Sequence record: PV682554.1
Direction: 5' to 3' (one strand)
Source of the DNA: Escherichia phage 92CQ
Length of the DNA stretch: 64,000 bases
Shown here: in pieces, positions 6,432-25,096 of the stretch
Position numbering within the stretch: position 1 is the first letter of the stretch
How the letters are laid out: every line of letters starts with the position of its first letter
Notes under the pieces: generated by a model
Database searches by the model: none
Told to the model about the DNA's origin: nothing
Seen by the model: the letters and a program-made list of their open reading frames with translations, nothing else
Position numbers and translations under genes: made by a program

Positions 6432-6449
6432 TAACCCCCTTGAGGGGGT
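6432..6449 (-). promoter_or_regulatory. GC hairpin upstream of ORF 5991..6419 RBS
   Basis: aaCCCCCttgaGGGGGtt. Confidence 0.4.
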
Positions 6450-6459
6450 TTATGATAGA

Positions 6460-7113
6460 TTAATTATCAGAGGATACTTTATCAAGTTTTTCAGAGACTG
6501 TCAATACTTTTTCTTGTGATTCTTTCATTTCTGCTAAAATGCTTTCAGCTTCATCACTATCAGGATCACCAGTCAACAGCATACTAATTAGTTGCTCCTT
6601 GCTGAAGTTCAGAATATCTTCCGCTGTTAGCTCCAATTGTTCTTCAATCTCTTCGACAAAAGTTTCACCTCCTGAAAAAGCATCTCGTAGTTTTGCAACT
6701 TCCATTGCTTCTTCTGGGGTTGCCCCAGCATCTAAAGCTGCTAAAGCAAAGTCTGCCCCACTACCAACAGCATAATAGTCTTCAGTTAAAGGATATGCTC
6801 GCGTTGGATTATTACCCTCGTGCATATAAATTTTACCGTCTGGGTGAACAACCAGTGCCACAAACTCTTCATCTTCTTTATCGGGATCTGACTGGATCAC
6901 CAAACCTGGGATTGTCTCTTGTGCTGCCTGGCATTGTAAGTTTTGTTCAAACCAAGAAAAGAAAGTCAGGATAGAAGACAGACGTCCTGCACCACCAACA
7001 AGGTAGTCCCCAATTTTACGCACTTTCTTGAAGTTTAAAGTGTCTACACGACTACCTACTGTTACCTTACCGTCAGACAGAATTTTGTTACGTGTTGCAA
7101 TAATTGTTGTCAT
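6460..7113 (-). CDS. putative HslV-like Ntn-hydrolase peptidase
   Basis: MTTIIATR N-terminus (Thr directly after Met), KKVRK and GGAG pattern resembling HslV/proteasome beta subunits; acidic C-terminal tail. Confidence 0.5.
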   Translation of the reverse strand: MTTIIATRNKILSDGKVTVGSRVDTLNFKKVRKIGDYLVGGAGRLSSILTFFSWFEQNLQCQAAQETIPGLVIQSDPDKEDEEFVALVVHPDGKIYMHEGNNPTRAYPLTEDYYAVGSGADFALAALDAGATPEEAMEVAKLRDAFSGGETFVEEIEEQLELTAEDILNFSKEQLISMLLTGDPDSDEAESILAEMKESQEKVLTVSEKLDKVSSDN

Positions 7114-7604
7114 TATACTTCCTCCTGTAATGTTTTAAGGACTGCTTTACCACCGCTTACATATTTACGGAGGTAATCAATAGCTCTTAGTGTTTCTTTA
7201 TCCACAAGAATTTTATTAGTTCTTGTTAGTGGATGATTTAGTAAATCACTGCAATTTCTTACTAACATAGATTTCTTGTGAAAGATACTGCTAAGAAAAA
7301 GAAGTTTAGAATCTTCTTCATCAATCAGGAGTAACTCTGAATTAGACCCAGCTACATTTATTATACACTCAAACAAGCCTTCTTGACTATCAGATAATTC
7401 CTGGTAATATTTAGTTAGCCAATCCTCTCCTTTCAACCAACTAAAAAACATCTGAACTTTTTGCAAAGTTGTCATGTTCTCTAAACGAAGAGATATTTCT
7501 TTTTCAATCTTGTCAATATAAATCTGTCTAAACTCATTCGGCTTAACTAAGCCAGCTTGATAGCATTCATCAATACCATTGCGATCAATCTCAATTAGCG
7601 TCAT
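7113..7604 (-). CDS. hypothetical protein
   Basis: 163-aa ORF. Confidence 0.45.
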   Translation of the reverse strand: MTLIEIDRNGIDECYQAGLVKPNEFRQIYIDKIEKEISLRLENMTTLQKVQMFFSWLKGEDWLTKYYQELSDSQEGLFECIINVAGSNSELLLIDEEDSKLLFLSSIFHKKSMLVRNCSDLLNHPLTRTNKILVDKETLRAIDYLRKYVSGGKAVLKTLQEEV

Positions 7605-7640
7605 TTAACCTCCATAACAGGCATCCTTGCCTTGTAATTA

Positions 7641-8393
7641 TTAATATACTTCCGTGATGAACTGAGACAAACGGGAACGTTGGTTATCAGCAGTTGTCAT
7701 TTCAACATAACCAATAAAATCTACAATAGCTTCCCTTTCTCCTTCTTCGTTAATAGGAACAACACGATCTAACAAATCACCTAACCCATTAGCTCTTCGT
7801 TTAATTGCATATGTTTGATTAACATCGCCCATAATGACAATACGTGTATTAAGACCTGCTCGCTCAAGAAGAAGTTTTACTGTATTTGGTGACATAAGTT
7901 GAACTTCATCAATAAGAATAATGCTGTTATCCCACGTAGCACCTAGTGCATAGTTTGGAATATTAAGTTCAATTTTGCCACTTGCAATATCGTTTTCCAA
8001 TTTATTTGCAGTCATAAACTGTTGGAAAATTCTTTTAGTTGATTCGTAGTGTGCTGCTAGTTTATCAGTCTTATCTCCAGATAAGAAACCAATCTGATCA
8101 TCACCTACTTCTGTCGGGTTTTTAAGGAAAATCAACTTTCTGAAGTCACCAGCTTTAAGCATTTGCAATGCTTTCCATAGTGCTGTTGTTGTTTTTCCTG
8201 TTCCTGCTGGGGCATTAACAATGGTTAAATCATTCCAAACCATGCTTCTTACAATAGCTTCTTGATTCCCAACAGGGGTAAATTCATCAAGACGGTAATC
8301 ATCATTTCCTACTGCTTTAGCCGCATAACGACTGGCACGTTTGTCATCATTGGCTGCTGATTGACGACGAGCCTTTGCGGTTTTATTTCCCAT
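7641..8393 (-). CDS. phoH: PhoH-like ATPase
   Basis: Walker A NAPAGTGKTT and overall PhoH-family pattern. Confidence 0.8.
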   Translation of the reverse strand: MGNKTAKARRQSAANDDKRASRYAAKAVGNDDYRLDEFTPVGNQEAIVRSMVWNDLTIVNAPAGTGKTTTALWKALQMLKAGDFRKLIFLKNPTEVGDDQIGFLSGDKTDKLAAHYESTKRIFQQFMTANKLENDIASGKIELNIPNYALGATWDNSIILIDEVQLMSPNTVKLLLERAGLNTRIVIMGDVNQTYAIKRRANGLGDLLDRVVPINEEGEREAIVDFIGYVEMTTADNQRSRLSQFITEVY

Positions 8394-8408
8394 GTTTGCA
8401 CTCCTTAT

Positions 8409-8430
8409 AAAAGGGGCTTTCGCCCCTTTG
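8409..8430 (-). terminator. GC hairpin (GGGGC-GAAA-GCCCC on minus strand) with T-run, directly upstream of the phoH RBS
   Basis: Plus strand reads aaaaGGGGCtttcGCCCCttt; minus-strand transcript has hairpin followed by UUUUUA then AAGGAG. Confidence 0.5.
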
Positions 8431-8431
8431 T

Positions 8432-23513: not shown

Positions 23514-23605
23514 TTGATCGTAGTCTATTGCAAGAATTGTGTTCTCGTCAACATATTTGTGCAGGTCTTCCGGTTGGATTAAAATGTAACCGCTAATATT
23601 ACCTC

Positions 23606-23818
23606 CTATTCATCATCTGAACTCTCTGTTGAGAATGTTCGTGTGTAGGGACACTGACGACTTGCAGAAACCTCTATAACCTTGTCGTACATACCGTTAG
23701 AGTAAAAACAGTATTTTGTACTTCCAGAAACTTGTTCTCCAGAATTAATTAAAGTTATTTGACCAGCATAAGAATAAGAACTGATTACTAAAAGTAAACC
23801 GACAAGAAGTTTTTTCAT
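23606..23818 (-). CDS. small secreted protein (signal peptide)
   Basis: Start moved to ATG 23816-23818 (MKKLLVGLLLVISSYSYA|GQ) with AAGGAGA RBS; hydrophobic signal sequence. Confidence 0.45.
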   Translation of the reverse strand: MKKLLVGLLLVISSYSYAGQITLINSGEQVSGSTKYCFYSNGMYDKVIEVSASRQCPYTRTFSTESSDDE

Positions 23819-23892
23819 GGTGTGTCTCCTTAAAAGCCCACCTAACTGAGTAGGTAGGCATATTAACACATATTAAATTAGTAAGTCAAGTA

Positions 23893-24777
23893 TTATTTTT
23901 GAATAGTTGACTTGATAAGGTCTTGCATAATACCACGGATTTCATTAAAGCACAGAAGGACAGATGCTTCAAAAGATCCTTCTTCATCGTTAAAGTATTT
24001 AGGGAATTTAATACCACTCAACTTAAATTCTTTATCGACAATAAAGTTAACGAAACCGTCATATTCCAGGCCAATGGCAACAACGTGCTTACCATCTTCC
24101 ATAAGTTCTACTGCACGAGATTCATAAAGGGACTCTTTACTCCATACAACCACACCTTCAGAATCTTCAAGTTTAATATAATTACCCAGGGTCAGTCGTT
24201 CAGCCTCATGTTCTTCTAAGATGGTATCAAAACCTTTAATAATGGCTTCTTCGTGTACACTAAACAGCAGAACTGGGAAAGTACCCAACACCTCACGAAG
24301 AAATACAGCAATATCTTCACTAATTTTCTTAGAACCATTAAGAACATAGGTAATACTGTTTTCAGTGTCTACAACAACATAGTTGTAGAAATCATCTGCC
24401 TCTGTTTCTGGAAGCAGAGAAAACACGATATCAGCCTCAATTGCTTTTTTACTTTCTTTATCCAAGAAGAATTCTTTAGTAGGATTTGCAGCAATAAATT
24501 CTTGTTCCATCTCCTGGAGTTTTTCATTAAGAATACGTTTAACTTTCTTCTTGTTAACTTTCTTAACAGACTGCCCTACTTTAATAACCTCTAAACCAGA
24601 GAACACTTTTACATAGGAACCATCATCTTCAAAACGAACAAGACCAATGGTATGTGCTTGTTGCCCCTGTGCCACAACAAAATCCAGCGGTTTGTCTGTT
24701 ACTGTGTTCAGTGCTGAAATAGACAGACCATCACCAGAAATCAGGGTTACGCAAGATTTGAAATTTTTAGCAAACAT
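23893..24777 (-). CDS. hypothetical protein (weak RdgC-like resemblance)
   Basis: Start moved to ATG 24775-24777 (MFAKNFKS) with GAGGAGAAAA RBS. Confidence 0.4.
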   Translation of the reverse strand: MFAKNFKSCVTLISGDGLSISALNTVTDKPLDFVVAQGQQAHTIGLVRFEDDGSYVKVFSGLEVIKVGQSVKKVNKKKVKRILNEKLQEMEQEFIAANPTKEFFLDKESKKAIEADIVFSLLPETEADDFYNYVVVDTENSITYVLNGSKKISEDIAVFLREVLGTFPVLLFSVHEEAIIKGFDTILEEHEAERLTLGNYIKLEDSEGVVVWSKESLYESRAVELMEDGKHVVAIGLEYDGFVNFIVDKEFKLSGIKFPKYFNDEEGSFEASVLLCFNEIRGIMQDLIKSTIQK

Positions 24778-24787
24778 AGTTTTCTCC

Positions 24788-25066
24788 TCAAATAACAACT
24801 ACAAAATATTTTACACCATCATATTCTACAATATGATCAGGATATTTAAATCCTTTATAAGATTTACCAAACAGACTAACAGCCTCATTAGCTTTGTTTT
24901 GCGGATTACTCAACCACTGTTCTTCTGTGTAAAACTTAAATTCTGTTCTCTTACCTTCTTTTTCTAAACCAACAATTTCCTGTGTGATATCTTCAATACC
25001 TGCATTCTTCAAGGATTTGATCACCTGACGCAAACCGTGTTTAAAGATATCTTCTGCTGTTAACAT
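24788..25066 (-). CDS. hypothetical protein
   Basis: 92-aa ORF; GC hairpin upstream. Confidence 0.45.
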   Translation of the reverse strand: MLTAEDIFKHGLRQVIKSLKNAGIEDITQEIVGLEKEGKRTEFKFYTEEQWLSNPQNKANEAVSLFGKSYKGFKYPDHIVEYDGVKYFVVVI

Positions 25067-25078
25067 AATACCTCCAAT

Positions 25079-25096
25079 AAGCCCCCGAAGGGGCTT
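25079..25096 (-). promoter_or_regulatory. GC hairpin upstream of ORF 24788..25066
   Basis: aaGCCCCcgaaGGGGCtt. Confidence 0.4.

Follow-up and report, generated by a model that had tools for sequence, protein, structure and literature searches.

In the 64,000-nucleotide stretch of Escherichia phage 92CQ analysed here (record PV682554.1; "the window" below is this whole stretch), five short GC-rich hairpins stand between consecutive minus-strand genes. We consider them probably to be ordinary intra-operon sites of intrinsic termination or attenuation for the host sigma70 RNA polymerase that also serve as stabilising hairpins at mRNA 3' ends. They are RNA elements, co-oriented with transcription, and belong to the 3' end of the upstream cistron. 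The window shares 99.3% identity over 20 kb with Escherichia phage JohannJBalmer (Bas62), about 50 further isolates match it at 95-99%, and it can be assigned to a phi92-like E. coli myophage (Justusliebigvirus, Stephanstirmvirinae). Its GC content is about 36%. Minus-strand genes span 1-32241 and encode functions of nucleotide metabolism and replication (among them nrdA/nrdB, thymidylate synthase, thymidine kinase, exonucleases, ligase and endolysin); plus-strand genes follow from 32651 on, with a tRNA cluster and then terminase, capsid and tail genes.

All five hairpins listed by an earlier, sequence-only reading of this DNA are present (Table 1). They are named here by their first position, written in gene direction, that is as minus-strand RNA, and assigned to gene junctions J1, J3, J4, J7 and J8. 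Each lies in a gap of 36-40 nucleotides (nt) between minus-strand genes, and its GC core ends 5-9 nt ahead of the GGAG(G) of the next gene, so the closeness to the next ribosome-binding site (RBS) that had been noticed is real. The general form GGGGC-NNNN-GCCCC given for them is correct for 8410 and 21497 and too strict for 6433, 15106 and 25079, which have C5/G5 or GCCCC/GGGGC clamps instead; a literal search with GGGGCNNNNGCCCC (GGGGC-N4-GCCCC) returned two matches, 8410 and 21497, against 0 expected, and hence two of the five sites. The 15106 hairpin, GGGGG(C)-UUU-(G)UCCCC, can equally be drawn with a 5-bp stem and a 6-nt loop and is not a clean tetraloop, and 25079 carries the canonical C(UUCG)G tetraloop. 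Fold energies amount to -8.5 to -10 kcal/mol for the cores of 14-16 nt and to -11 to -13 kcal/mol if the A/U extension is included, and AU-rich single-stranded flanks are found on both sides. A U-run, said to follow most copies, is good at 21497 (UUUAUUUUU; seven U in the 8 nt past the core), fair at 8410 (UUUUAUAA) and 15106 (UUUCUUAA), with five each, and poor at 6433 (UUAUUAGG) and 25079 (UUAUUGG), where four of the eight are U and the run is broken after UU. The stems, of 5-8 bp, are shorter than the about 20 bp or more of an RNase III site. Searched against Rfam at gathering scores, the window yielded tRNAs only, and at E <= 5 nothing was found at the hairpins in 5000-26000.

The hairpins are not placed at random. 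Perfect-stem GC hairpins with a dG of -8 kcal/mol or lower occur 20 times in the window, whereas dinucleotide shuffling, done 60 times, gave 4.6 +/- 2.1. Eleven of them are wholly intergenic, at an intergenic share of the window of 6.5% (binomial P = 9e-9). Nearly every gap of 36-45 nt in the minus arm holds a GC hairpin, the remaining junctions being about 13 nt or less or overlapping; in effect, the hairpin constitutes the intergenic spacer of this arm. When the shuffling was confined to the gaps of 36-40 nt, 8410 stood out clearly (z = -3.6), and the weak values of 6433 (z = -0.70) and 15106 (z = -0.40) arise because runs of five G and five C fold in any order. A built-in terminator scan of 5001-25000 showed no overall enrichment (14 against 9.9 +/- 3.5) because its criteria are lax.

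The hairpins are conserved as structures rather than as sequences. The early arm was compared with its syntenic counterparts in four divergent relatives with a nucleotide identity of 72-78% in the nrdA region: Phapecoctavirus SKA64, Shigella phage SF1-1, Citrobacter phage Tr1 and Klebsiella phage phi1_175008. We added IMG/VR contigs with homologues of the flanking genes, which gave about nine divergent Stephanstirmvirinae lineages in total and 35 orthologous hairpins at the five junctions. J4 is covered by fewer lineages than the other junctions, since the small open reading frame (ORF) at 14755-15090 retrieved near-identical genomes only when used as query. Pairs were counted by a script outward from the loop-closing pair, MAFFT alignments being out of structural register. 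In essentially every lineage a GC hairpin is kept at the same gene junction while its sequence turns over. The stems covary through compensatory changes (CG to GC and the reverse, CG to UA, GC to AU), with double changes at several positions, and one broken pair was counted in the 35 hairpins. At J1, which follows the HslV-like gene, the stems include CCCCC/GGGGG, UGCCCC/GGGGCA, AAGCCC/GGGCUU and AUGCCUC/GAGGCAU, and the orthologues in eight other lineages differ in their stems and mostly have UUCG loops. J3 orthologues (endolysin to PhoH) have an invariant GGGGC/GCCCC stem and a loop that is GAAA, UUCG, GUAA, GCAA or GUCAU; those of J4 are clean GGGGC-UUCG/GAAA/GGAA-GCCCC hairpins with tails of the UUUUUAUU type. 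Nine orthologous, covarying variants are found at J7, which follows the DnaQ-like exonuclease gene (GGGGC, CCCGC, GAGGGC and GGGAGC with their complements), and the J8 stems are GCCCC/GGGGC and GCCGCCC/GGGCGGU, with GCCGCCC-UUCG/UUUAU-GGGCGGU and UGCCCC-UUCG-GGGGCA among the orthologues. In every lineage the genes on either side of J3, J4 and J7 are conserved ones.

The position of the hairpin relative to the flanking genes is equally regular. At 30 orthologous junctions, 4-16 nt (median 6) separate the upstream stop codon from the GC core, and the stretch between the hairpin and the downstream start codon measures anywhere from 14 to 63 nt. The length of the gap is correlated with the downstream distance (r = 0.96) and not with the upstream one (r = 0.16). 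In long gaps (J7 and J8 of Phapecoctavirus, J7 of two IMG/VR lineages, and 757 and 54919 of the window) the hairpin stays by the stop codon and a promoter or spacer is found before the RBS. Anchoring to the stop codon, together with the floating start distance, identifies the hairpins as elements of the 3' end of the upstream cistron. There is therefore no support for the functional link to the RBS that had been implied, and the adjacency seen in this genome reflects genome compaction. It is very unlikely that the hairpins are translational elements placed by the next Shine-Dalgarno sequence (SD) in order to insulate or expose it or to uncouple neighbouring cistrons. That every claimed hairpin of the window ends so shortly before GGAG(G), and that 15106 can form an alternative weak helix in which its U-tract pairs with the SD, would suit such a role; the start distance, however, absorbs all of the variation in gap length, and where a gap is long the hairpin parts from the RBS and remains with the stop codon.

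The loops indicate on which strand, and in which molecule, the hairpins function. Read in gene direction, 16 of the 35 orthologous hairpins have a UUCG loop and ten a GNRA loop, almost always with a C-G closing pair; the antisense loops (CGAA, UUUC and others) fall into a stable-tetraloop class in none of the 35. Within the window the sense of the loop follows the orientation of the genes: the minus arm shows GAAA, GAAA, UUCG and UUCG on the minus strand, the plus arm GCAA, GAAA and UUCG on the plus strand. The confinement of the tetraloops to the sense strand and their reversal with the genes show that the functional form is RNA, as had been proposed for the minus-strand transcript, and argue against a DNA palindrome or a protein-binding site. 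A function at the DNA level, in which the palindromes would be bound by a protein or would be recombination hot spots for the shuffling of cassettes in the manner of promoter-early stem-loop (PeSL) elements, is thus highly improbable. Copying would readily account for the identical cores of 8410 and 21497 and their near-twin at 52115; gene content varies between lineages beside J6 (thymidine kinase in the window only) and J8 (HNH genes inserted in SF1-1 and Tr1); and PeSL stem-loops often contain polyG/polyC tracts and stand ahead of an SD (PMC2839356). A DNA site, however, makes no sense of stable tetraloops on the transcribed strand only, its stems would be expected to conserve sequence rather than to covary, and the five gaps have neither the sigma70 promoter nor the conserved repeat of about 100 bp that define a PeSL.

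The shared core itself points to convergence rather than copying. The 20-bp cores of 8410 and 21497, described earlier as near-identical, are exactly identical, and a scan of IMG/VR met the same 20-mer, AAAGGGGCGAAAGCCCCTTT, in at least 120 stretches on other viral contigs, which for the most part seem unrelated. The matches listed lie on contigs of 4-306 kb, and the fetched stretches have 30-58% GC. A few (IMGVR_UViG_2974717474_000001, 3300045988_074297 and 3300030441_000047) are closely related to this phage and were also retrieved through homologues of the flanking genes, and some contexts repeat. In the 118 cases in GAAA orientation among the matches listed, the next base is T in 73% and the one after it in 82%, and A-rich, stop-codon-like sequence lies ahead of the 20-mer. 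AAAGGGGCGAAAGCCCCTTT thus appears to be a generic minimal terminator module that is convergently reused. Therefore neither the identity of 8410 and 21497, to which special weight had been given, nor the near-twin at 52115, whose flanks closely resemble those of 21497, needs a special explanation. Duplication or gene conversion as the source of the identical 20-mers was considered and rejected in view of how widespread the 20-mer is.

Terminator quality was scored with a hairpin/T-tail discriminant, d, the formula of which is reportedly due to d'Aubenton-Carafa et al. 1990; A-U extension pairs were trimmed. Positive values were obtained for 8410 and 21497, the latter being the best of the five, and for two controls at unit ends with a promoter after them, 757 and 54919 (Table 1). 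The U-tracts of J4 and J7 are strong across lineages. The J7 tail is an unbroken run of six U in the lineages in which a promoter follows and is broken where none does (UUUAUUUUU, UUUCUUAU, UUUAUAAU), a pattern that, in this small sample, agrees with terminators being strong where a unit ends and leaky within an operon. In the window the same rule holds at 757, 39265 and 54919, and the terminator after the major capsid protein gene at 47568 breaks it (UUUUUU, no promoter after).

Several points weigh against termination at all five sites. The formula for d was combined with present-day energy parameters, which leaves its thresholds approximate, and at these thresholds three of the five hairpins (6433, 15106 and 25079) score too low. 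Read with a 5-bp stem, 15106 would reach a d of about -3, a hand estimate rather than a computed value, and may be called a borderline terminator in this genome, with orthologues that have strong U-tracts. The tails of J1, J8 and most J3 orthologues are only of the UU(A)UU type, weak by E. coli rules, and those of the J1 and J8 orthologues are no better than the tails in the window. With five GC pairs in 14 nt, the core stems are close to the lower end of the length range of E. coli terminators. For 8410 and 21497 the antisense scores are equally good; the strand call therefore rests on loop identity and gene direction and not on the tails, and the symmetric 8410 hairpin could act bidirectionally. 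Finally, a literature search found no transcriptome or 3'-end mapping for Stephanstirmvirinae, and termination itself is what we infer. The leaky termination suggested earlier finds support at 8410, at 21497 and, by way of its orthologues, at 15106, each with a GC hairpin, an A-tract, a U-tract and a positive or borderline score. The two others have weak tails both here and in relatives; 6433 and 25079 may mainly be stability or processing elements, which for these two is as likely as termination.

That all five should be non-terminating elements of mRNA stability or processing is rather unlikely in our view. They would then be barriers to 3'-5' exonucleases after cuts of the polycistronic RNA in the AU-rich flank, or 5' hairpins of the downstream fragment, and would give the segments of the message different half-lives. 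The weak U-tails at 6433 and 25079, replaced in orthologues by UUAUU, UAAUG or AAUGUU, agree with this, as do the AU-rich single-stranded sequence on both sides, the complete lack of a U-tract at 20306 and 18097, and the UUCG and GNRA loops with C-G closing pairs, which maximise stability and are apt to block an exonuclease; in phiKZ a hairpin followed by UUAU is found at mapped transcript 3' ends (PMC10914365). On the other hand, strong U-tracts are kept across lineages at J4 and J7, and the same design recurs with long U-runs at 757 and 54919, at obvious unit ends before promoters. Stabilisation is moreover not exclusive of termination, since terminator hairpins stabilise 3' ends too.

For partial termination combined with 3' stabilisation, the reading that we prefer, the following course can be proposed. 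A G/C clamp of 5-6 bp, capped by a stable UUCG or GNRA tetraloop, would form in the nascent minus-strand RNA, its stem often lengthened by pairing of the upstream A-tract with the downstream U-tract. Where the U-tract is good (21497, 8410 and, judged with its orthologues, 15106), a fraction of the polymerases would be released; distal genes would be transcribed less and the upstream message would be left with an exonuclease-resistant 3' hairpin. A stable hairpin at the 3' end of the upstream RNA would be expected from all five. From the layout of the gaps, termination at the five sites would have to be partial and leaky, because the SD 5-9 nt past the hairpin leaves no room for a promoter and the downstream genes need read-through. 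Essential genes such as nrdB are among them: nrdA is followed by the small ORF and nrdB, and the gene for the DnaQ-like exonuclease by three others. A plausible contribution to the leakiness comes from the terminating ribosome, which at a stop codon 4-16 nt away would probably mask the 5' arm; in E. coli, a terminator only a few bp past a stop codon is all but silenced by the ribosome that finishes there (PMC4824070). A more far-reaching version, which we regard as doubtful, makes the hairpins ribosome-gated attenuators: each would lie in the footprint of a ribosome that terminates on the upstream stop codon, read-through, for instance into nrdB after nrdA, would be licensed by translation of the upstream gene, untranslated or decoupled transcripts would be terminated and capped by UUCG or GNRA hairpins, and the UUAU-tailed 6433 and 25079 would be dedicated non-terminating stability elements. 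If true, the dosage of early and middle genes would be under a two-tier control that senses translation and has been maintained across the subfamily.

The five hairpins belong to a larger group of intergenic GC-clamp hairpins, which has at least 15 members and extends over both arms of the window. The earlier list of sites was therefore right in its five entries and incomplete, further hairpins being found at 757, 7619 (weaker), 18097, 20306 and 23835 and on the plus arm (Table 1). The 18097 hairpin is a separate sub-class, a composite of promoter and stem-loop. The weak hairpin in the gap between the PhoH-like gene and the next gene (7605-7640, minus strand; the 7619 site), GGCA-AGGA-UGCC without a U-tract, differs from the GC-clamp hairpins in what is conserved: all lineages examined keep the loop sequence A(A/G)GGA(N), and the flanks are variable.

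Table 1. GC-clamp hairpins of the window, written in gene direction; d, hairpin/T-tail discriminant (thresholds approximate); terminators are predicted.
Position	Strand	Junction	Hairpin	d	Setting
6433-6450	minus	J1	AACCCCC-UCAA-GGGGGUU	-11	between HslV-like peptidase gene (6460-7113) and next gene (5991-6419)
8410-8429	minus	J3	AAAGGGGC-GAAA-GCCCCUUU, then UAUAA	+15	between endolysin gene (8432-8932) and PhoH-like gene (7641-8393)
15106-15123	minus	J4	GGGGGC-UUU-GUCCCC(C), then UUUCUUAA	-27	between nrdA (15131-17392) and small ORF plus nrdB
21497-21516	minus	J7	AAAGGGGC-GAAA-GCCCCUUU, then AUUUUU	+26	between DnaQ-like exonuclease gene (21520-22482) and next gene (21080-21481)
25079-25096	minus	J8	AAGCCCC-UUCG-GGGGCUU	-3.5	between NTP-pyrophosphohydrolase-like gene (25103-25825) and next gene (24788-25066)
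757-776	minus		AAACCCGC-UUCG-GCGGGUUUUUUG	+30	canonical terminator with exact C(UUCG)G, 3 nt past stop codon; internal positive control
18097-18115	minus	J5	GGAGAGC-UAU-GCUCUCC		5' untranslated region (UTR), downstream of conserved sigma70-like promoter 18155-18127; without U-tract
20306-20325	minus	J6	CGCUCCC-ACAAAC-GGGAGCG		gap 20292-20336 upstream of thymidine kinase gene; without U-tract
23835-23859	minus		GCCUACCUA-CUCAGU-UAGGUGGGC, then UUUU		after promoter-like site 23889-23860
39265-39289	plus		AAAAGCCUCC-UUUUU-GGAGGUUUUUU	+20	terminator, then promoter-like site 39312-39340
42802	plus				hairpin of the same class
47568-47598	plus			+17	terminator after major capsid protein gene
51582-51599	plus		AGCGGGG-GCAA-CCCCGCU	+3	after tail sheath gene; GNRA loop in sense on plus strand
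52115-52134	plus		AAAGGGCA-GAAA-UGCCCUUU, then AUUUUU	+10	after tail tube gene
54919-54942	plus		AAAGCCUCGC-UUCG-GCGGGGCUUUUUAUUU	+37	terminator after tape-measure gene

Near-consensus promoters of the form TTGACA-N17/18-TAnnnT are present in both arms and point to host-type transcription; host-type promoters of this form have been reported for the related phage rV5 (PMC3606486). The 757 terminator directly precedes the promoter TTGACA-17-TAAACT (752-724), and the 54919 terminator is followed by a near-consensus promoter at 54952-54981. The J5 unit of promoter and hairpin is conserved in four genera. This promoter and the promoter-like sites at 23551-23522 and 23889-23860 lie within the span that had been taken for a single long early operon, a view that is thus not supported. 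Just upstream of J3, J4, J7 and J8 no conserved promoter was found in the five genomes compared. Ahead of 6433 (J1) stands TTGACA-17-TAAAGT with an extended -10 TG (6504-6476, minus strand), in this genome only, and TTGACG-16-TATTAT (20353-20326, minus strand), which abuts the 20306 hairpin of J6, is likewise not conserved in relatives; both sigma70-like sites may be lineage-specific internal promoters or chance matches. We also considered the five as 5'UTR hairpins of embedded promoters and rejected this, the promoter before 6433 not being conserved in relatives. Composites of a promoter and a GC hairpin are found at 18076-18172, 23819-23892, 42758-42854, 54914-55028 and 698-779, with near-consensus sigma70 promoters at 18155-18127, 23889-23860, 42761-42790, 54952-54981 and 752-724, respectively. 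In three composites the hairpin lies in the 5'UTR about 10 nt past the predicted start site.

Some further features of the window were noted. Three GenBank records, MG065645, MG065656 and MG065689 ('Campylobacter phage A145/C3/A110a', host Campylobacter jejuni), are 98.5% identical to the window phage over 20 kb; probably the host is mislabelled or the isolates were contaminated by a coliphage. Positions 1-990 (ORFs 284-697 and 780-1037) do not match the corresponding JohannJBalmer genes, the rest of the arm being about 99% identical, and form a variable cassette bounded by the terminator 757-776 and the promoter 752-724. The early arm also encodes a complete dTDP-rhamnose pathway (rmlA/B/C/D-like genes, 9356-12617). 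All four genes are found at the syntenic position in SKA64 and Tr1, and two of the four, of the reductase/epimerase type and a 3,5-epimerase, are annotated there in SF1-1 and phi1_175008. In the tRNA cluster, 36372-36450 (plus strand) matches the Rfam tRNA model with 40 bits, above gathering, and is absent from the ARAGORN list; it may be a 17th tRNA of the cluster, atypical or degenerate. tRNA-Ser(GCU) is present twice, at 36652 and 36957.

Hairpins of this kind are already known from related phages. Twenty Rho-independent terminators were predicted for rV5 (PMC3606486), 55 terminators for Phapecoctavirus ASO2A (PMC10612097) and 37-48 per genome in a set of E. coli O177 phages, some of them members of Phapecoctavirus (PMC10698182); terminators are not mentioned in the BME3 paper. 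The ARNold predictions in the supplement of PMC10698182 contain the Phapecoctavirus orthologues of J4 (TGATGAAACTAGGGGCTTCGGCCCCTTTTTATTGAGG), J7 (TCTAATAATCAGGGAGCTTATTGCTCCCTTTTTTATTGAC) and the 23835 hairpin, so that for two of the five, J4 and J7, the counterparts in sister phages had been catalogued as predicted terminators before. The present analysis maps consistently where, in a phi92-like phage that is a therapeutic candidate, transcription units are likely to be bounded and attenuation is likely to occur, which is little beyond annotation. It adds that the sites are conserved as structures across Stephanstirmvirinae and corrects the idea of a link to the RBS; none of this will surprise a specialist. 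Short modules such as AAAGGGGC-GAAA-GCCCCUUU could serve synthetic biology as compact, tunable terminators, and, because the hairpins are anchored to the stop codon, this phage group offers a natural set of sites in which interference between ribosome and terminator could conveniently be tested.

In design the hairpins resemble the intrinsic terminators of E. coli and its phages: a GC stem with a UUCG or GNRA loop closed by C-G, flanked by an A-tract and a U-rich tract of varying quality, lies past a stop codon and is co-oriented with the genes. They differ from typical ones in that their cores have only five GC pairs, two of the five have tails of the UUAUU type and, in gaps of 36-40 nt, the U-tract runs into the next SD. 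Repetitive extragenic palindromic (REP) elements and intercistronic stem-loops, such as that between malE and malF, can stabilise 3' ends of upstream mRNA against exonucleases and bring about differential expression within operons. They are likewise stable hairpins between cistrons; REP, however, is a host-chromosome family with a consensus, and no such consensus is found here. Intercistronic C(UUCG)G hairpins in T4 mRNA are said to have been first described by Tuerk et al. 1988. As in T4, very stable tetraloops recur here between the cistrons of a virulent coliphage, and 25079 and 757 have the exact C(UUCG)G; this phage, however, belongs to the Stephanstirmvirinae and not to the Tevenvirinae, and the resemblance is one of design and not of homology. 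The UUCG hairpin was first noticed in T4 mRNA (PMC4371310).

PeSL cassettes of T4-type phages carry stem-loops with G/C tracts as terminators or attenuators ahead of an SD (PMC2839356, PMC4122927). The composites at 776-724, 18155-18097, 23889-23835 and 54919-54981 join a hairpin and a sigma70 promoter in the same way. The five hairpins do not: they have no promoter or repeat of about 100 bp, their gaps of 36-40 nt are too short, and they are situated between core genes (nrdA/nrdB, lysozyme/PhoH) instead of flanking ORFans; no sign of recombination was met at them, in an analysis that did not look at recombination junctions. In phiKZ, ONT-cappable-seq mapped a terminator motif of the form CCYCCCC-loop-GGGRRGG followed by UUAU (PMC10914365). 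Although phiKZ uses its own non-canonical RNA polymerases, so that its rules may not transfer to a phage with host-type sigma70 promoters, 6433 (CCCCC-UCAA-GGGGG-UUAUUA) and 25079 (GCCCC-UUCG-GGGGC-UUAUUG) share with this motif a C-run/G-run hairpin and the UUAU after it, and the motif shows that weak-U hairpins can mark real 3' ends of phage transcripts.

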